From the NCBI GenBank assembly GCA_039630415.1, contig JBCNVB010000025.1, forward strand, positions 1-64,000: a stretch of 64,000 bases of DNA. The letters are read 5' to 3'. The translations under genes were made by a program, and so were the position numbers. This stretch comes from a bacterium (GTDB taxonomy: Bacteria; DRYD01). The notes under the pieces were generated by a model. It was not told the origin of the DNA and made no database searches. It saw nothing but the letters and a program-made list of their open reading frames with translations. Positions 1,487 through 61,293 of the stretch are shown here, piece by piece; the stretch's first letter is position 1; the number at the start of each line of letters is the position of its first letter.

Positions 1487-2002
1487 TTAATTATCATCAA
1501 AGAAAAAGTCATCAAAATCATCATCTATCCTGGATTTCGTCTTATTCTTACTCTTATTACTGACAAATTCATCATCTTCAAAATCTTCAAAACTATCAAA
1601 ATCATCTATATCTTTTTGGGTTTTCCTTTCGTACTTATCAAATTTTTCAGATCTTTTTTCTTCTTGCTTTCTGTCAAAATCAGTTTTTTTATCTTGTTCT
1701 GGCTTTTTATCCAACATTCTGAATGATTCTACTACGATTTCATATACTTTTCTTTTAGTTCCGTCCTGAGCTTCGTAGTTTCTGGTTTGTATTCTGCCTT
1801 CTATCATTATAAGTCTACCTTTAGTTAGGTATTTGGATGCTATTTCTGCTTGCTTATCAAAGGCTACGATATCAAAGAAATCGGTTTCTTCATTAGCTCT
1901 GTCAACAGCTAAGGAAAAACTGCTTACTGCTTTTCCCTGCTGAGTATATTTCAGTGTAGGTTCTTTTACAACTCTACCTATCATCAATACTTTGTTGTAC
2001 AT
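1487..2002 (-). CDS. ssb: single-stranded DNA-binding protein
   Basis: MYNKVLMIGR, LAVDR, KGRLIMIEGRIQTRNY OB-fold; acidic C-terminal tail. Confidence 0.95.
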   Translation of the reverse strand: MYNKVLMIGRVVKEPTLKYTQQGKAVSSFSLAVDRANEETDFFDIVAFDKQAEIASKYLTKGRLIMIEGRIQTRNYEAQDGTKRKVYEIVVESFRMLDKKPEQDKKTDFDRKQEEKRSEKFDKYERKTQKDIDDFDSFEDFEDDEFVSNKSKNKTKSRIDDDFDDFFFDDN

Positions 2003-2050
2003 AGTTTCATTTTTTGTGGGATTTATATACCGCTATTACCCACCTAGCGG
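2003..2050 (-). promoter_or_regulatory. putative H-type pseudoknot leader of ssb
   Basis: CCGCTA/TAGCGG stem; loop GTGGG is complementary to downstream CCCAC; linker TATATAAAT; A-rich tract to the ATG; analogous element before recA. Confidence 0.55.
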
Positions 2051-3594
2051 ATGTTTATAACATCTTTTTGTAATATTAAGCTTTCGGTAAGTTTTTCAAA
2101 TAGCTTTCCTCTTTCTTCAGCGGATTGGAATTGATCAAAGCTAGCTCCTCCAGGAGCTAATAAAATAGCTATAGCATCGTAGTAATCTTGCTCTTGAAAA
2201 GCCAAATCCACAGCCTTACCAAAAGCTTTCTCCAAATCATCAAAGGCATACATATACTTCAACCCCAACTTAGCAAAAGGATTGATAAACAAATCAGAGT
2301 ACTTACCAAAACTAATCAATCCTACTAAATCTTTGTAAATATCCACTCCTAATTCATCCAACTCTTTCCAAAATTCCTCTCTATTAGTGTACTTGGGAAC
2401 CCCACCAACAAGAAGTATTATCCCATACCTGTTAACCTTATTTACATTAAATAGTCTCTTAACAGTAAATACACTTGATCTAGTAGCAGCTAAATTAGTA
2501 GCTTTGCTGTCATTATAAAATTGTATTTTTCCGAGTTTACCAACTAATCTTAACCTATAATCTAGTGGTACAAAGTTGTCTATAACCTCTATAACCTTAC
2601 GCATATCTATTTCTATTTTCTTTATTACCCTTGAGTAGATAAAGAATGCAAGCAGAGAAGGTACAAGATTCTCTAAATAAATCCCATCATACCTAAAAAT
2701 CTCGTTACTTATTTTATTCAGGGGCAACGAAAAAACTACATTGGACTTTTTGTAATTTTTTATGTTTATTTGATTAGCGTCGATGCTAGCAACATAACCT
2801 ATTTCAGAATTATTTTTTAACTGTTTAATACTTTCCTCATCAAATGGCCCATTGAAAAAGTAGTTTATAGTTGACTTAAGTCTGTTCTTGTCTAAAGATT
2901 TTATTGTATTGTAGTCGTTTGCATTGATAATGCAGAAATCCTTCTTGAGTTGGAAATATAACAGTTTCAATTTAGATTGTATATAGTCTTGCATATTTTG
3001 GTGTCTATCAAGGTGATCAGGCTTTATGTTAGTTATGACTGATATATGTGGTCTGATATTGTTAGTCATTTTGAGTTGGAAAGAGCTAATTTCCAGAACT
3101 ATGGTGGGATTACTAACGTTCGAGCATTCATAGCAAATTTCAGAAAAAGGATAACCTATGTTACCACCTATAAACACGTTTTTGTTTAGGTGAGAATCAA
3201 TGAATTTGTATATTAGTGTTGTTACAGTACTTTTGCCATTAGTGCCAGTAATACCTATAATAGTTTTGTTTTTGGATAAAGTTTTATAGGCCGCCTCTAT
3301 TTCTGATATAACAGGAACATTTACAGATTTGGCAAACTCGATGATGGGATGATCAAATGGAACACCAGGACTTACTATCAGAAATCTATAGTTTTTTATC
3401 TCATTTATAACATACTGTGGCTGTTTACCCAGGAATATTTCATTAAAATATGGCCTATATTCTTCAGGTATATATAGGTTGTAGTTATCATCAAATCCTT
3501 TTACCTTAAATCCTAGTTGATGGTAAAGTTTAGCGCTACCTAATCCGCTTTTGGATAATCCCAATATTCCGATCGAGTCCTTTTTTACTCTCAC
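2044..3594 (-). CDS. murD: UDP-N-acetylmuramoyl-L-alanine--D-glutamate ligase
   Basis: GITGTNGKST, GNIG, EISSFQL, DHLDRH, NDSKATN, ASFDQF motifs. Confidence 0.93.
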   Translation of the reverse strand: MRVKKDSIGILGLSKSGLGSAKLYHQLGFKVKGFDDNYNLYIPEEYRPYFNEIFLGKQPQYVINEIKNYRFLIVSPGVPFDHPIIEFAKSVNVPVISEIEAAYKTLSKNKTIIGITGTNGKSTVTTLIYKFIDSHLNKNVFIGGNIGYPFSEICYECSNVSNPTIVLEISSFQLKMTNNIRPHISVITNIKPDHLDRHQNMQDYIQSKLKLLYFQLKKDFCIINANDYNTIKSLDKNRLKSTINYFFNGPFDEESIKQLKNNSEIGYVASIDANQINIKNYKKSNVVFSLPLNKISNEIFRYDGIYLENLVPSLLAFFIYSRVIKKIEIDMRKVIEVIDNFVPLDYRLRLVGKLGKIQFYNDSKATNLAATRSSVFTVKRLFNVNKVNRYGIILLVGGVPKYTNREEFWKELDELGVDIYKDLVGLISFGKYSDLFINPFAKLGLKYMYAFDDLEKAFGKAVDLAFQEQDYYDAIAILLAPGGASFDQFQSAEERGKLFEKLTESLILQKDVINIR

Positions 3595-8337: not shown

Positions 8338-8363
8338 TGGGTTTGAGATATAGGGGAGGGATA

Positions 8364-8435
8364 AGCGGTAGACGGGACTCGAACCCGCGACCTCCTGCTT
8401 GGAAGGCAGGAGCTCTACCACTGAGCTACTACCGC
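8364..8435 (-). tRNA. tRNA-Gly(TCC), CCA not encoded
   Basis: GCGGTAG acceptor stem, CCTGC-CTTCCAA-GCAGG anticodon arm, GGTTCGAGTCC T-arm. Confidence 0.96.
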
Positions 8436-8619
8436 TCCAACTTATTTATTCTAAAAACCCTACACTACCTCCTCCTATTTCCTTAACATACCCAGGATTT
8501 CATTCGAAATTATCACAATATTATAAATGGAGACAAAATTTAACATTTTTTTCACATATATTTAAAAGATCAACAAAAAACATATAAAAAAAAGATAAGC
8601 GGGGGTAAATGAATAGGTT

Positions 8620-14224: not shown

Positions 14225-14233
14225 GTTCTAGAG

Positions 14234-14307
14234 CAGGGCGGAGAGGATTTGAACCCCCGACCAATGGATTTGGAGTCCACCGCTCTACCAGACTGAGCTA
14301 CCGCCCT
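14234..14307 (-). tRNA. tRNA-Trp(CCA anticodon), 3' CCA not encoded
   Basis: AGGGCGG acceptor stem, GTGGA-CTCCAAA-TCCAT anticodon arm, GGTTCAAATCC T-arm. Confidence 0.95.
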
Positions 14308-48789: not shown

Positions 48790-48799
48790 TGGACAAGAG

Positions 48800-48891
48800 C
48801 GGAGAGGACGGGATTCGAACCCGTGGTGTCGCCTATTAAGCGACACTCTCGCTTAGCAGGCGAGCGCCTTCGACCACTCGGCCACCTCTCC
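48800..48891 (-). tRNA. tRNA-Ser(GCT), long variable arm, CCA not encoded
   Basis: GGAGAGG acceptor stem, CTCGC-CTGCTAA-GCGAG anticodon arm, GTGTCGC/GCGACAC variable arm, GGTTCGAATCC. Confidence 0.96.
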
Positions 48892-49034: not shown

Positions 49035-49928
49035 ATGGGAATACTAGTAAACAAATCAACCAGAGTGTTGGTACAAGGAATTACCGGCAAAGAAGGAAGC
49101 TTCCATACTCAAAGAATGCTAGAATATGGTACCCAAATAGTTGCTGGAGTTACTCCCTATAAAGGAGGTCAATCATTCCTTGGTATACCTGTTTTCAACA
49201 CTGTTAAAGAAGCAATCGAAAATGTAGGCCATATAGATGCTAGTGTCATATTTGTACCAGCATTACAAGCAGCTTCCAGTATTATTGAAGCGTGTACAGA
49301 AGGAATAAAACTAATCGTAGTTATTACCGAAGGAATACCACAACACGATATGCTTAAAGTTCATTATTATCTTAACAAATATCAATCCAAAATGATAGGT
49401 CCCAACTGCCCGGGAATAGCAACCGCTGGTGAATGTAAAATTGGCATAATCCCTAACAACGTCCTAGAACCAGGAATTGTAGGATTGGCATCAAGAAGTG
49501 GAACTATCTCTTATGAAATTCTCAAATTGCTAAAAGATAATTCCCTTGGTCAAACAACAGTAGTCGGGCTAGGAGGAGATCCTCTTATTGGTCTTAGATT
49601 CAAAGATGTATTGGAAATGTTTTTAGAAGATAATCAAACTCAAGCAGTAGTTATGGTAGGTGAAATTGGAGGTAGTGATGAAGAAGATTCAGTACCCGTA
49701 GTTAAAAAACTAGTTGAAAATAACAAACCCGTAGTAGCATTCATAGCAGGAAGAAATGCACCGGAAGGTAAAAGAATGGGACATGCAGGAGCTATCATCA
49801 TGGGTAAATCAGGTAAACCTGAATACAAAATCCAAAAACTACAAGAAGCAGGAGCAATAGTAGTCGATACAATATCCTCCATCCCTTCTATTCTCAAACA
49901 AAAACTTGTAACACTAAACAAAAGCTAG
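49035..49928 (+). CDS. sucD: succinate--CoA ligase alpha subunit
   Basis: VQGITGKEG, GPNCPG, SRSGT, GGDP, GEIGG, RMGHAGA. Confidence 0.95.
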   Translation: MGILVNKSTRVLVQGITGKEGSFHTQRMLEYGTQIVAGVTPYKGGQSFLGIPVFNTVKEAIENVGHIDASVIFVPALQAASSIIEACTEGIKLIVVITEGIPQHDMLKVHYYLNKYQSKMIGPNCPGIATAGECKIGIIPNNVLEPGIVGLASRSGTISYEILKLLKDNSLGQTTVVGLGGDPLIGLRFKDVLEMFLEDNQTQAVVMVGEIGGSDEEDSVPVVKKLVENNKPVVAFIAGRNAPEGKRMGHAGAIIMGKSGKPEYKIQKLQEAGAIVVDTISSIPSILKQKLVTLNKS

Positions 49929-49943
49929 TGGAGGTGGACAAGT

Positions 49944-50198
49944 ATGGCTCAGAAAAAATCCGGTAGTGCAAGCAAAAACGGGAGAGATAGCAATAGCAAA
50001 AGACTAGGTGTAAAAGCTTTCGATGGACAATTCGTAAAAGCAGGTAACATCATAGTAAGACAAAGAGGTACAAAAATATATCCAGGTATCAACACAGGTC
50101 TGGGATCTGACTATACAATATTCGCACTTTGCGACGGAGTAGTAAAATTCAGAAAAACTAAACATAAAACCTTTGTAGATGTAGTAAGTAGTGTATAA
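49944..50198 (+). CDS. rpmA: 50S ribosomal protein L27
   Basis: [21 protein letters not shown]. Confidence 0.97.
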
Positions 50199-51915
50199 CA
50201 GATTAATTCTCATACAGTCTTTTCTTAAACCTTCTATAGCTGTTATTCTAGACAGCAATGAAATATACAGTGTTTTACTTGACGTAGAAGGCTCAGAAGT
50301 AGGAAATATTTATAAAGGAAGAGTAACAGCTATACAAAAGGGGATAAATGCTTGTTTTGTAAGCTTAGGACAAGGAAAATCAGGTTTCTTGAATTTAGCC
50401 GATGTACCCCCCATAGTAGAAATCAAACCCAACTCGTTTATAATGGTAAAAATAAAAAAAGATCAGGTAAAAGGAAAAGATCCTCAACTATCAGCACAAA
50501 TTACACTCGCAGGTAAATACACTATCCTTCTACCCTTCGAAAATTCAATAAAAGTATCCAACAGAATAGAAGAAAAAGATACCCAAGAAATACTAGTGCA
50601 TAAAATATATCACATAAGAGAAAAATTAAGTCAAAAGTATTCTGAAATAAAAAATATTGGTTTTATAGCAAGGACAAATTCTAAATATTGCGACGCTATA
50701 CAAATGCTTAAAGACATTGAAAATTTATACCAAACCTGGCAAAAAATTCTAGAAGATTATAATAAGTCCAACTATGAAAAACTACTTTATAAAGATGAAA
50801 GCTTTGCAATTAGAGTAATAAGAGAATTTTTCGATTCAAAGACAAAAGTCATAGTAGATAATAAAGATGATTACCTATACATAAAGAACTACTTGTCATT
50901 TTTTGAGCCAGAATATGTTAATTGCGTAGATTATTTTGATCCTCTAAAAGCGAAAAAAAATCTACTGGAATTCTATAACGTAAGAATAGATTTGAATGAT
51001 TTTATAAAAACTAAGATAAATTTACCAATTGGAGGATATTTAAGTATCCAACATACTGAGTTAGGAACAACCATAGATATTAACTCAGGTAGTTACATGG
51101 AACAAACACCACAAGAAACTTACAAAAACTACAATCTAAAGGCTATAAAAGAAATAATAAGGCAGATTAGATTGAGAGACATATCTGGTATAATCCTCAT
51201 AGACTTTCTCAAAATTCATGATGAAATTGAAAAACAAAAAATGTATACCAAAATAATTGAAGAGATTGAAAAAAATTTAAAAGAGGACAAAAAGAAAGTT
51301 AAGATATGGGATTTTACTAAACTTGGTATACTAGAAATAACAAGAGAGAGGACAGAAGAGGAAAATTACAACAAAATATCAACCCCATGCAAATATTGCC
51401 AAGGTTCAGGATATACCCTATCACCCAAATACCAAGCCTATCAAATAATCAACTCCATAAATTCCTACATTGTCAAGCTAGTAAGCTCAAGAGAGAAAAA
51501 CTTATATGTTGAGATTTCTGTAGACATCTTACCTTTTTTCCTCGAAGAGTATGTTTACAACAACTATGACAAATTCTTACACGATTACGGATTTAAATTA
51601 GCGGTAAGAACTTTTAAACACTCATATTATTTACCCAGACAATCGAAATATAAAATAAAAGCTTTGCAGAATTTTAGTAGCTTTGATAGTTCAATAGAAA
51701 TGGACTTTCCCAAAGTGGGTGATATTTTGGAATTAGAAGCCTGGTATCTTCGTGAAACACATTCCAACATAGTTTTCTCAGTTTATAAAAGATTTCCGAT
51801 TATAATACAGCATGAAATTGAACCCATATCTGAAGGAGTAAAAAACATTAAAGTTGAAATAAAAAAAGTGATACCCTTCTATTACATTGAAGGATATAAA
51901 ATAGAAGGAGGTTAA
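50191..51915 (+). CDS. rng: Rne/Rng family ribonuclease
   Basis: GNIYKGRV S1 domain, [38 protein letters not shown]. Confidence 0.88.
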
Positions 51916-58460: not shown

Positions 58461-58997
58461 ATGGTTGATCTAGGCAAACTTGTTAAAACTGACATATATG
58501 TAAGATACTATGAAACAGACAGGATGAAAGTAGTTCATCACTCCAACTATTTCAGGTATTTCGAATTAGGTAGGTGTGATTTCTTTTCACAAAAAGTAAT
58601 ACCTTATTCTATTCTAGAAGAGAAATACTATGTTTTGAGTCCTTTGATATCTGCTTATTGTAAGTTCTATAGAGCTTTGAAATTTGAAGATATTCTTTGT
58701 TTAGTAACCTTTGTAAATCGGTTTGATGGTATTAAAGTAGAGTTCGGTTATTTGGGATTATATGGTAGGAATAGTATGCAAGAGTGCAGCAGTTTGTTAA
58801 CTAGATATTTTTCGAGTAGGAAAAGGTTTGATAGTTTAGTATGTTTTGGTACTACGGAACATATCTTCGTAGATGCTCAAACATTTAAACCAGTAAGGGC
58901 AAAAGTGTATATAGAGGAGAAAGGGGATAGTTTAGATAGGATAATAATGGATATGAGGGTAGGTGCGGCTGTAGCTCAACTGGATCAGAGCATGTGA
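58461..58997 (+). CDS. acyl-CoA thioesterase (YbgC/4HBT family)
   Basis: VRYYETDRMKVVHHSNYFRYFELGR; 3' end overlaps tRNA-Arg. Confidence 0.88.
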   Translation: MVDLGKLVKTDIYVRYYETDRMKVVHHSNYFRYFELGRCDFFSQKVIPYSILEEKYYVLSPLISAYCKFYRALKFEDILCLVTFVNRFDGIKVEFGYLGLYGRNSMQECSSLLTRYFSSRKRFDSLVCFGTTEHIFVDAQTFKPVRAKVYIEEKGDSLDRIIMDMRVGAAVAQLDQSM

Positions 58998-59039
58998 CTT
59001 CGGATCACAAGGTTGTGGGTTCGAGTCCCACCAGCCGCG
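58965..59039 (+). tRNA. tRNA-Arg(TCG), CCA not encoded
   Basis: GCGGCTG/CAGCCGC acceptor stem, TGTGA-CTTCGGA-TCACA anticodon arm, GGTTCGAGTCC. Confidence 0.95.
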
Positions 59040-59068
59040 CAAACCTACCATCCTAATCTCTAAACCCC

Positions 59069-59335
59069 ATGGAACTTTTCATAGGAATAACAGGTATGAT
59101 TATCCTAGTTTCCTCTTGGATACCACAAACTATAGAAACACTTAAAACTCAAAAATGCCCTATGAATATTAACTTCATAATCCTTTATACCCTTTCCTCA
59201 TTACTACTAACCATATACTCAATCCTAATCAAAGATATAGTATTCACAACTCTCAATCTACTAGCGTTTATTCAAAGCTTTATTAATCTGATTGTAAAGA
59301 TCAAAAATTTGATGACCTTAAAAAATGATAGATAG
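59069..59335 (+). CDS. PQ-loop/SemiSWEET-like three-helix membrane protein
   Basis: WIPQ motif, three TM helices, 88 aa. Confidence 0.75.
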   Translation: MELFIGITGMIILVSSWIPQTIETLKTQKCPMNINFIILYTLSSLLLTIYSILIKDIVFTTLNLLAFIQSFINLIVKIKNLMTLKNDR

Positions 59336-60266
59336 CAAGATTCTTTTCGAAGTTATAACTCCTCCTATAAGATGGAATAAGAAAAGAAAACTAGACTTTA
59401 TTCAAACAATTTGTAATATAGCGTATCAAAATGATATAAAATTTATCAATATTCCACAAATAGTTGATGAGTCAAGGGATGGTGAAAGGGTATTTAAATT
59501 TCTACCTAAAGAACCTAATCATATATTCGCAAAGCAAATAGTAGAATATTCAAAATCTTCATACAACTTTGCACTAGAACCAATTATTAATATAGTCGTC
59601 CCAATAATCAACAAAGCTAATTTCTTAAGCCATTTTAATGATATCTATCAAATGGGATACAAAAATTATATTTTCGTGGGTAAAGATAGATCAGATATTG
59701 AATATCCTGGTTACGAAGTTACTCAAGCAGTTGAAATAGTCAAAAATAAATACTCAGATGTAAAAATCGGAGGTATCGTAATATTTCATAGAGAAAATGA
59801 AATAAAAAGAATGATAAAAAAAATCAATAGTGGTGTCGATTTTTTTGTATCACAAATAGTATATGATATTCAGGATTTTAGAAATTTCATTAAGCAAATA
59901 CAAGAAATATCCATAAACACTCAGATATACGTTTCAGTAGCTCCATTAATAACTTCAAAAGAAATAGAATTTGCAAAATGGCTGGGAGTAAATTTATCGA
60001 ACGTAAATTTTAACCCTCAAACAATTAAAGAAGATTCGATGAGGATAATAAAAAACATTATAAATGAAGTAGCTTATACTGAATATGCTTTTGCTAGGGG
60101 AAATATCCAGGTAAGATGGGGTATAAATATCGAACACATAACATATAGTAACTTAAGCCTTTCAGAAGAAGTTATAAAAATGGCAAAATTAAGGTTAGAA
60201 AACGTTAAATATTTACTTCCGCCACCGGTTAGGCGGAATATAAATCAAACCGGATTAAAAAACTAA
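59325..60266 (+). CDS. methylenetetrahydrofolate reductase-like protein
   Basis: [28 protein letters not shown]. Confidence 0.7.
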
Positions 60267-60279
60267 AAAACTAAAAACT
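60217..60279 (+). promoter_or_regulatory. putative H-type pseudoknot leader of recA
   Basis: TTCCGCC/GGCGGAA stem; loop CCGGTT is complementary to downstream AACCGG; linker TATAAATC; A-rich tract to the ATG. Confidence 0.55.
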
Positions 60280-61293
60280 ATGGAAACTGAATTAAAAAAA
60301 GATCAGAACATAAAAGAACAAATCCTAAAAACAGTTATTTCTCAGATAGAGAAAGAATTTGGAAAAGGTAGCATAATGAAGCTAGGACAGCAAGAAAGAT
60401 TAAATATTGAAGCTATATCTACAGGTAGTTTATCGTTGGATTTGGCAATGGGAGTTGGTGGGTTTCCCAGAGGTAGAATATCCGAAATTTTTGGTCAAGA
60501 GTCATCGGGTAAAACTACTCTAGCTTTAAGTGCGATAGCAAACGCTCAAAAAGCTGGAGGTATAGCCGCTTTTATAGATGCAGAACACGCTCTAGACCCA
60601 GAATATGCTCGAAAAATCGGTGTAGACGTAGATAACTTGTATATTTCGCAACCAGATAGTGGCGAACAAGCACTCTCCATTGTTGAAATGCTAGCTAAAA
60701 GCAATGCTGTAGATATCATTGTTATAGATTCTGTTGCTGCACTCGTTCCTCAAGCAGAAATAGAAGGCAACATAGGTGACCAATTCATAGGCTTACAAGC
60801 AAGATTAATGTCACAAGCTCTACGAAAACTAACATCCATAGTAGGTAAATCAAAAACAGCAGTAATATTCATAAATCAAGTAAGAGAAAAAGTAGGTATA
60901 ATGTTCGGTAATCCAGAAACCACACCAGGCGGTAGAGCACTTAAATTCTACGCAAGCGTAAGAGTAGAACTAAGAAAAATAGATAACATTAAAAAAGGGG
61001 AAGTTAGTATAGGAGCAAGAGTAAAAGCAAAAGTAGTAAAAAATAAACTCTCACCACCTTTCAAAGAAGCTCAATTCTCAATCATCTTTGGTAAAGGTAT
61101 AGATAAAATATCAGAGATAGCTGACCTGGCAACCGAAATGAATCTAATCTCAAAAACTGGTAGCTGGTACTCCATCGGAGATGAAAAAATAGGACAAGGT
61201 AGAGAAAAACTCATCGAATACTTAGAAAACAATCCATCACTACTTATAGAACTAGAAAGAAAAATATATGAACACCTAAAACAAACAGAGTAA
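60280..61293 (+). CDS. recA: recombinase RecA
   Basis: [42 protein letters not shown]. Confidence 0.98.

Follow-up and report, generated by a model that had tools for sequence, protein, structure and literature searches.

The question raised by this locus is why recA and ssb, two genes of one stretch of bacterial DNA, are preceded by the same small RNA fold. The stretch, called the window in the following, comprises 64,000 nucleotides (nt) of contig JBCNVB010000025.1 (positions 1 to 64,000; assembly GCA_039630415.1, lineage DRYD01). A sequence-only reading had described in both leaders an H-type pseudoknot with a compensatory change in stem 2, followed by an A-rich leader without a Shine-Dalgarno (SD) sequence, and had offered two functions for it: a switch that senses single-stranded DNA (ssDNA) and couples the synthesis of RecA and SSB, or an SD-independent initiation element. 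Both leader sequences proved to be exactly as written there, and the structural claims came out stronger than proposed, with covariation over 79 instances. Our results showed that the element is a real H-type RNA pseudoknot of about 40 nt, present in many copies per genome and confined to one bacterial family. As judged from comparison of the sequences, and with the balance about even, it would be a cis-acting, SD-independent translation-initiation element that is neither specific to recA and ssb nor a sensor of DNA damage.

The genome of the window (G000; 1.40 Mb, 32% G+C) was compared within its family (G000-G009, ten genomes in two genera, seven of them in genus 1 and the rest in genus 2) and with the sister family, which is represented by a single genome (G010, 73% complete). 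The ten motif-bearing genomes are 71-90% complete, and a RecA search of the genome contigs found relatives of at most 64% identity only, from many phyla. No 16S rRNA gene is assembled in G000, and the 16S comparisons used the three 16S genes of relatives. Two covariance models were employed. The first (R1) comprised 13 sites and stem 1 only, so that stem 2 remained an independent test, and the second (R2) carried stem 2 and was used to align 82 hits. The instance set consisted of 79 copies from ten genomes, which were all copies of G000, G004, and G008 and 21 from the other genomes.

Range and fold of the element

A plain regular expression on G000 found eight sites, all with a CCGC..GCGG stem and with stem 2 sequences that differed but were complementary. 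R1 gave 15 sites of at least 26 bits in this genome, the next match having 18 bits, and 12-22 sites (E ≤ 0.01) in each of the nine other genomes of the family, across both genera; it gave zero sites in the 73% complete genome of the sister family and in 20 genomes of other lineages. The pattern CCGCN{7,14}GCGGWATAYAAA matched 7-18 times in each of the ten family genomes and 0 times in the sister genome. Elsewhere, 21 of 390 other genomes had one or two matches, which is chance level since a reversed control pattern gave a similar scatter of single matches. A relaxed descriptor (any GC-rich stem 1, ATA[TCA]AA, and a stem 2 of at least 5 base pairs (bp)) was rejected as unspecific, with 40 matches vs 40 in the reversed genome, yet it still exposed two true variants with another stem 1. 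The statement of the sequence-only reading that the motif precedes no other gene held within the window, where R2 found only the recA and ssb sites (31.3 and 21.4 bits; next match 11.1 bits), and fell for the genome as a whole; the genome scan for further copies that it had suggested gave 15 in G000, so that recA and ssb are no pair. The run that it had seen in both leaders, the 14-mer GCGGWATATAAATC, does occur exactly twice in the window, and five matches to it with up to two mismatches were counted against 0.96 expected. A weak match of 18 bits (G000:C5:214430-214482, + strand) may be a divergent member. Its stem 1, AGCGCU/AGCGCU, is palindromic, its loop is AUAGAAAU, a stem 2 can possibly form, and the gene that follows is the ortholog of one with a canonical copy in G008.

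Rfam 15 holds no family for the element. No description was found in the literature on the lineage names, pseudoknot, S1, translational enhancer, SD, hot spring, and candidate structured RNA, nor in the passages covered of a 224-motif survey (PMC5737381), a comparison that leaves aside the motif lists in its supplements. Small H-type knots whose loop 3 is A-rich are a known fold class; what is new is this family, together with its use across the genome and its tie to the SD.

The consensus consists of A-N3-CCGCY, loop 1, a G-rich 5' half of stem 2, loop 2, RGCGG, W-A-U-A-N-A-A-A-U, and a C-rich 3' half of stem 2. The CCGC/GCGG of stem 1 is identical in nearly all copies, two copies having variants that are still paired (GCACC/GGUGC and CUGCC/GGCGG), and an A is found 4 nt before stem 1 in 77 of the 79. 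The fifth pair of stem 1, which lay outside the aligning model, forms in 73/79 (U-A in 38, C-G in 24, U.G in 9, and G-C in 2). The base before CCGC pairs with the base after GCGG in 49/79, which is about chance, so stem 1 is as a rule not extended outward. Loop 3 is W-A-U-A-N-A-A-A-U, with A2, U3, A4, A6, and A7 the same in 79/79, figures that are inflated because the copies were found with a model containing those positions. Loop 1 has 0-4 nt and loop 3 has 8-12 nt in most copies, and stem 2 is mostly 5-10 bp long. Loop 2 has 0-6 nt, but 14-34 nt in five genus 2 copies, and it is the only place where long insertions fall, in agreement with the fact that loop 2 is the sole loop of an H-type knot that is free to grow. 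The insertions, at loci L176, L177, L180, L183, and L185 of G008, are A/U-rich.

The best helix of stem 2 had a mean length of 7.0 bp, compared with 4.7 bp when the 3' flanks were permuted among the instances (the maximum of 200 permutation means was 5.03). It reached at least 5 bp in 78/79 copies, and the 79 copies have 66 distinct 5' halves of stem 2, each with its matching 3' half. As a negative control, 80 chance matches to the pattern in viral contigs, one per contig, lacked stem 2 complementarity (mean 4.26 bp; at least 6 bp in 8/80) and had the A at position -4 of stem 1 in 36/80. In the alignment of 82 hits, 96.0% of the cells of both helices pair vs 76.9% after shuffling, a value that 0/500 shuffles reached; 159 cells are changed on both sides vs 39.4 in the shuffled alignments, the covariation score is 0.433 vs 0.141 (at most 0.103 in slid controls), and all seven pairs of stem 2 vary on both sides. 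This alignment was fitted to stem 2 and leans towards it, whereas the permutation test and the fifth pair of stem 1 are independent of it. The covariation is unusually clean because each genome holds 15-23 paralogous copies with unrelated stem 2 sequences. Covariation and conservation in relatives, which the sequence-only reading had proposed to look for, were thus both found, with two covarying stems and 12-22 copies per family genome.

Among the non-Watson-Crick pairs inside stem 2, 8 are G.U, 0 are A.C, and 9 are other, an asymmetry that double-stranded DNA does not predict and that therefore points to a helix of sense-strand RNA. Since this pairing spans the TATAAAT-like loop, both flanks of the loop lie within one transcript. 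The order of the strands (5' half of stem 1, 5' half of stem 2, 3' half of stem 1, 3' half of stem 2), the covarying helices, and the sterically allowed loop lengths are those of a predicted H-type knot. Single-sequence folding with ViennaRNA, which does not model pseudoknots, gave the stem 1 hairpin only, with weak z-scores (recA, -2.87; ssb, -0.40), and was not decisive, so the structural support rests on the covariation. Stem 2 is also polar. Its 5' half contains 228 G vs 78 C, G being the commoner of the two in 60 copies and C in 6, which makes the helix look like an intramolecular SD:anti-SD duplex.

Two other identities of the element were considered and rejected. A mobile repeat of the repetitive extragenic palindrome (REP) or miniature inverted-repeat transposable element (MITE) kind was ruled out by the compensatory changes in stem 2 and by the orientation, which is always that of the downstream open reading frame (ORF), and an intrinsic terminator by the A-rich sequence after the stems and the lack of any terminator-like site in 59800-60400 or 1800-2400 of the window. 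In a subset of leaders, a second small hairpin is present directly 3' of the pseudoknot (e.g. CAAGCAAUACGCUUG and GCAAGUAAAAACUUGC) and is kept between orthologs. It was observed at rplL (G000:C3, just downstream of 57304; G004 L153), at rpsD (G000:C10, just downstream of 114969; G004 L157), at an aldolase gene (G000:C5, about 2633-2650), and in several G004 and G008 copies. Tandem units of ~13-15 nt (GCTACGCTAAAAAAA-like) lie 5' of the knot of this aldolase gene, at about 2420-2540 of G000:C5, as part of a 171-nt gap.

Genes served and their Shine-Dalgarno sites

A same-strand ORF starts 1-46 nt (median about 16) after stem 2 in 78/79 copies, the exception being at a contig end, and in 76/79 copies the preceding ORF is co-directional and has its end at -191 to +66 nt relative to stem 1. 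Often the stop codon of the upstream ORF is directly at the 5' edge of stem 1, and 19 of these ORFs overlap the start of stem 1 or extend beyond it. Judged by the sequences, the element is transcribed as part of the mRNA, usually a polycistronic one, in which it fills the gap after a co-directional gene. The 78 downstream ORFs belong to 45 protein families, mostly housekeeping. By Pfam, the genes served in G000 encode the ribosomal proteins L31, S4, L5, and L7/L12, RpoZ, RecA, SSB, a DeoC/LacD aldolase, a class-IV aminotransferase (IlvE-like), an enoyl-ACP reductase (FabI-like), an acetyl-CoA synthetase (AcsA-like), and a T2SSE ATPase (PilT-like). Those served in relatives include S2, S15, L17, L32, RRF, trigger factor, ACP, malate/lactate dehydrogenase, PRPP synthetase, PPDK, Asp/Asn-tRNA synthetase, the a and delta subunits of ATP synthase, H+-PPase, CutA, and others. 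The identity of these genes suggests that they are highly expressed. None of the 15 copies of G000 precedes any of its 42 tRNA genes, and no copy was present within 200 nt upstream of the three 16S genes of relatives.

The relation of the knot to the SD is seen most directly in a cluster of 18 consecutive ribosomal-protein ORFs (C3:42162-50585; gene names read from the N-termini, with only rplE confirmed by Pfam). Seventeen of them have a clear SD such as AGGAGG or GAGGUGA, and the sole SD-less ORF is rplE, which carries the knot instead. The same relation was found between orthologs. Twenty-six genes of G000 have no knot but have knot-bearing orthologs; an SD was present in 24/26 of these genes and in 12/35 of their knot-bearing orthologs (Fisher p = 4e-6, over related genomes that are not independent). 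For recA, the knot without an SD was found in G000, G007, G008, and G009, both together in G003, and a strong SD without the knot in G004 and G002. The last two are the 2/8 relatives with a readable upstream region in which recA lacks the motif, and in one more (G006) the motif is degenerate. In this recA leader (L188), which has stem 1 and the loop (AGUAUAAAAU) but no longer the 3' half of stem 2, a strong SD, AAGGAGGG, is found; the copy seems to be in decay, as if caught in the exchange between knot and SD. The ssb motif is present in 7/7 genus 1 genomes, mostly without an SD, and in none of genus 2 (G007, G008, and G009) or in G010; where ssb lacks the knot, in genus 2 and the sister family, it has an AGGAGG or GGGAGG SD. 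In the sister-family genome an SD also precedes rpmE and rplL. As shown by these orthologs, at the level of their sequences, knots and SD sites have been exchanged in evolution.

Where an SD is lacking (59 copies), stem 2 and the AUG are separated by a spacer that is mostly 10-22 nt long, with a median length of 15 nt, and that consists of A to 51%. Relative to the AUG, A is favored at -4 and -3, and U occurs at -1 in 44/59. The trinucleotide ACU is directly before the AUG in 15/59 of these copies vs 0/19 copies with an SD, and thus before the start codon of 15/78 motif genes vs 3.9% of genome-wide first-ATG ORFs.

The features of the two leaders of the window are collected in Table 1. The ORF upstream of recA remains open over the full length of the knot, its stop being 14 nt from the recA ATG, and the TAG stop of the ORF upstream of ssb (2046-2044) lies within the knot, between the 5' halves of stems 1 and 2. 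The 7-bp stem 1 of recA is a special case among the copies. The recA orthologs of genus 2 keep the motif with another stem 2, GCTGAAG/CTTCAGC.

Table 1. Coordinates in the window of the recA and ssb leaders and of associated genes
Feature	Position	Strand	Details
recA pseudoknot	60215..60253	+	sequence read; R1 37.7 bits, R2 31.3 bits
recA stem 1	60217-60223 with 60232-60238	+	TTCCGCC/GGCGGAA, core CCGCC/GGCGG
recA stem 2	60225-60230 with 60248-60253	+	CCGGTT/AACCGG
recA loop 1	60224	+	single nucleotide
recA loop 2	60231	+	single nucleotide
recA loop 3	ends 60247	+	AAUAUAAAUCA
recA conserved A (-4 of stem 1)	60215	+	
recA spacer	60254..60279	+	26 nt, A-rich, without SD, ACU just before ATG
recA	60280..61293	+	Pfam RecA, E = 3.9e-134
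MTHFR-like ORF	59325..60266	+	upstream of recA, co-directional, Pfam; stop at 60266
ssb pseudoknot	2016..2054	-	sequence read; R1 38.6 bits, R2 21.4 bits
ssb stem 1	2050-2045 with 2035-2030	-	CCGCUA/UAGCGG
ssb stem 2	2043-2039 with 2020-2016	-	GUGGG/CCCAC
ssb loop 1	2044	-	
ssb loop 2	2038-2036	-	
ssb loop 3	2029-2021	-	UAUAUAAAU; sequence read
ssb conserved A (-4 of stem 1)	2054	-	
ssb spacer	2003..2015	-	13 nt, A-rich, without SD, ACU just before ATG (2002)
ssb	1487..2002	-	Pfam SSB, E = 5.5e-32
Mur-ligase-family ORF	2044..3594	-	upstream of ssb, co-directional, Pfam
RNase E/G homolog	50191-51915	+	574 aa, N-terminal S1 domain, Pfam

Ribosomal protein S1, initiation, and the rival explanations

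When 11 genomes of the order were searched for S1 domains with Pfam, each of the ten knot-bearing genomes gave no more than two ORFs with such a domain, and two of these genomes gave just one of the pair. The ORF of ~700 amino acids (aa) is PNPase by NCBIfam comparison, and that of ~575 aa is RNase E/G. In the window, the gene of succinyl-CoA ligase alpha is located at 49035-49928, just upstream of the RNase E/G homolog. The sister genome encodes a 360-aa protein with four S1 domains (G010:C63:2148-3227), and the best NCBIfam matches of this protein are models of the 30S protein S1, at scores below the equivalog cut-offs. With this protein or the S1 family model as the query, only the PNPase domain was matched in the knot-bearing family. 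Ribosomal protein S1 appears to have been lost in this lineage, and its apparent absence fits a knot that serves SD-less starts in a lineage unable to use S1.

Start sites in bacteria are selected by three routes, which are SD pairing, the action of S1 on unstructured A/U-rich leaders, and leaderless initiation. In the proposed mechanism, the pseudoknot would act in cis on initiation without SD pairing. Through direct contact with the platform or with the help of an adaptor protein, it would hold the 30S subunit or put it in position, so that the gene would need no SD, and it would do so in a lineage that seems to have dispensed with S1. Structured leaders are known to dock directly on the 30S platform. 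A more specific form of this proposal is tentative and is held with less confidence than the general one. Here the S1-less family would use the knot genome-wide as a structural alternative to the SD; the knot would dock on the 30S platform, possibly with stem 2 as a look-alike of the SD:anti-SD duplex, and would bring into the P site an SD-less AUG that lies about 15 nt downstream, as a small cellular counterpart of a viral internal ribosome entry site (IRES) that is swapped gene by gene with SD sites. Of the two functions offered by the sequence-only reading, SD-independent initiation is the one that the comparisons favor, with the rplE exception and the swap of SD sites among orthologs as its probable signature.

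Several observations weigh against SD-independent initiation. An SD-like tract is retained by 28/78 motif genes, compared with 16% of random 15-nt windows, and the knot is therefore not a strict alternative to the SD. By a narrow SD regular expression, 20/78 (26%) of the motif genes have an SD, compared with 32% in a crude genome-wide first-ATG proxy of long ORFs; because the genome average is only 32%, the motif genes are poor in SD sites by comparison with orthologs and highly expressed genes and not with the genome as a whole. The start codons were in part chosen mechanically, and a few are probably wrong, e.g. that of fba in G004. Comparison by eye with the 16S 3' tail of relatives gave no evident complementarity to the loop or the ACU context. 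For the link between the loss of S1 and the knot there is one evolutionary split only, and its sister side is represented by one genome of 73% completeness. Moreover, the near-invariant stem 1, the A at -4, and the polarity of stem 2 fit recognition by a protein or ligand equally well, and the loop resembles a -10 hexamer.

Since those three features suit it equally, the main rival is that the knot is an operator for a global trans-acting factor, either a repressor or activator protein (gene-32-, S15-, or CsrA-like) or a riboswitch-like small-molecule or ion ligand, controlling a growth-rate regulon of ribosomal and housekeeping genes. The conservation of CCGC/GCGG, the loop positions, and the A at -4 exceeds what the helices need, the strand polarity of stem 2 is strong (60 vs 6), the gene set resembles a translation and growth regulon, and the topology is that of the preQ1-I aptamer, to which a sub-threshold Rfam match (21.5 bits) points. 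We nevertheless consider an operator unlikely. Stem 2 ends mostly 10-22 nt before the start and covers up no SD or AUG, and there is no terminator after the knot; hence the classical expression platform is missing. The conservation figures are inflated by the search model. A pure repressor site would also leave the loss of the SD at element-bearing genes unaccounted for, and no candidate factor emerged, none being sought. The loss of the SD is likewise left unexplained, together with the rather narrow spacing to the start codon, if the knot serves mRNA processing or stability by blocking 5'-end-dependent RNase E/G or marking a processing site, so that a highly expressed downstream cistron outlives the upstream one. 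This account agrees with a position that is intercistronic in 76/79 and always 5' of the served gene, with the presence of RNase E/G (Table 1) and PNPase in the lineage, with A/U-rich downstream leaders that no SD-bound ribosome protects, and with the second hairpin after some copies. However, the upstream ORF is translated into or through the element in 19/76, which would unfold a protective structure, and a stability element seems more doubtful still than an operator.

A DNA element has little probability. In this case, TATAAAT would be the -10 of an internal promoter, and CCGC/GCGG would be upstream recognition elements for strong transcription of the downstream gene. The loop does contain TATAAA(T), as in a sigma-70 -10, and its least conserved position, N5, is also the least conserved one of a -10; the element and the 3' end of the upstream ORF can overlap with no conflict between them, and many genes that it serves, namely rpmE, rpsO, rpsB, acpP, recA, ssb, tig, and frr, head their own transcription units in model bacteria. 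But the covarying helices, with 8 G.U and 0 A.C, span the putative -10, and the spacing from CCGC to GCGG varies from 9 to 13 nt and reaches 40 nt with the loop 2 insertions. At the equivalent of -7, 75 of the 79 copies have A, 4 have G, and none has T, there is no TTGACA-like -35, and a sigma-70 consensus scan calls no site at the recA or ssb motif; a sigma-70-type promoter was rejected for the lack of a -35 and of a T at position 6 of the hexamer. Upstream of the knot there is no conserved -10 or -35 at a fixed distance, only the A at -4 being conserved. Where no gene abuts, a canonical promoter-like site is present 5' of the knot, e.g. TTGAGT-N18-TATAAT ending 15 nt before CCGC, although chance was not controlled for in this AT-rich genome. 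The motif is found before none of the 42 tRNA genes or in the three 16S upstream regions, which carry other signals, and a promoter would again leave the SD loss unaccounted for.

The upstream regions of the tRNA genes of G000 are C-poor and G/A-rich, with a GGAGGG/AAGGGA-like box about 17-20 nt 5' of TAGAAT; before tRNA genes, GGAGGG occurs 7 times vs 0.25 expected and TAGAAT 13 times vs 1.85 expected. The three 16S genes of relatives have TTGATA-N17/18-TATAAT or TAGTAT upstream. The tRNA signal looks like a lineage-specific promoter type unlike the rRNA-operon type of relatives. Examples in the window are tRNA-Arg at 58965-59040 and the tRNA genes at 8363-8436, 14233-14307, and 48799-48891.

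The ssDNA-sensing switch that would couple RecA and SSB synthesis is almost certainly wrong. It was modelled on the operator of T4 gene 32, a single autoregulatory site bound by its own ssDNA-binding product, in which a 5' pseudoknot is followed by an unstructured, A/U-rich leader that extends to the start codon. Both recA and ssb do carry the element in G000, and its layout, with an unstructured A-rich tract after the pseudoknot, resembles that of the gene 32 operator. The distribution of the element contradicts this function. In G000, 13 further copies precede unrelated genes, 45 protein families are served across the relatives, and the element is dispensable for the two genes themselves, since recA lacks it in G004 and G002 and ssb lacks it in G007, G008, G009, and G010. 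An autogenous operator of the gene 32 type, which is restricted to the gene of the binding product, was rejected on the same ground, with 15 copies in G000 before unrelated genes.

Known systems and the meaning of the element

Among known RNAs, the nearest in layout is the preQ1-I riboswitch (RF00522), the only Rfam family with any signal. The recA leader matched it at 21.5 bits vs a gathering score of 39 (E = 2.1), and the six other motif-bearing loci of the seven scanned against Rfam gave no match. PreQ1-I is described in PMC11625349 as a small H-type pseudoknot in which P1 has 5 bp, L1 is short, L2 varies in length, the A-rich L3 lies in the minor groove of P1, and P2 is formed with the 3' tail, and the element has the same H-type layout with an A-rich loop 3. 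The same source gives a conserved specificity C (as UC or AC) directly before the 3' strand of P1. This C is not conserved in the element: the two nucleotides before GCGG were AA in 25, AG in 18, UG in 9, UA in 8, GG in 7, GA in 6, AU in 3, GC in 2, and GU in 1 of the 79 copies, and the C that precedes GCGG in 2/79 is base-paired. In addition, the element serves no queuosine genes, its stem 2 occludes no SD, and no terminator follows it. Membership in the preQ1-I riboswitches was therefore rejected, on the score below gathering and the lack of the specificity C, of queuosine genes, and of a platform.

Two translational systems can be compared with the proposed function. In the tisB mRNA, a 5' standby pseudoknot is needed for 30S binding and translation, as reported from compensatory stem 2 mutants in PMC7708055. 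The tisB knot works via S1, is located ~100 nt from a sequestered ribosome-binding site (RBS), and belongs to one toxin mRNA, whereas the element is located ~15 nt from the open, SD-less starts of 15-23 housekeeping genes per genome in a lineage where S1 was undetected. The intergenic region (IGR) IRES serves as a working analogy, in that a fold instead of a linear SD may recruit the small subunit; some activity in E. coli, reported as S1-dependent, is given for it in PMC9458429. The IGR IRES differs in having ~190 nt and three pseudoknots and in mimicking a tRNA-mRNA complex in the decoding site, while the element is 40 nt long and precedes a normal AUG. The leaders of ribosomal-protein genes form a further comparison. 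The rpsO operator folds as a pseudoknot bound by S15, according to PMC3985624, and the element too precedes ribosomal genes, namely rpsO, rpsD, rpsB, rpmE, and rplL. Those leaders, however, are gene-specific and mutually unlike, and the element is one motif before ribosomal and non-ribosomal genes.

For annotation, the element calls for caution, since its TATAAAT-like loop would be read by eye as a promoter and the genes it serves would be flagged as lacking an RBS. Even if the knot is an operator or a stabilizer, it represents an undescribed and very well supported class of structured RNA. If it does act in SD-independent initiation, it would also be a compact and portable expression part. 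Above all, it would then represent a fourth, structure-based route of initiation, which would be a new principle of bacterial translation, at work in the most expressed genes of a lineage that appears to lack S1.

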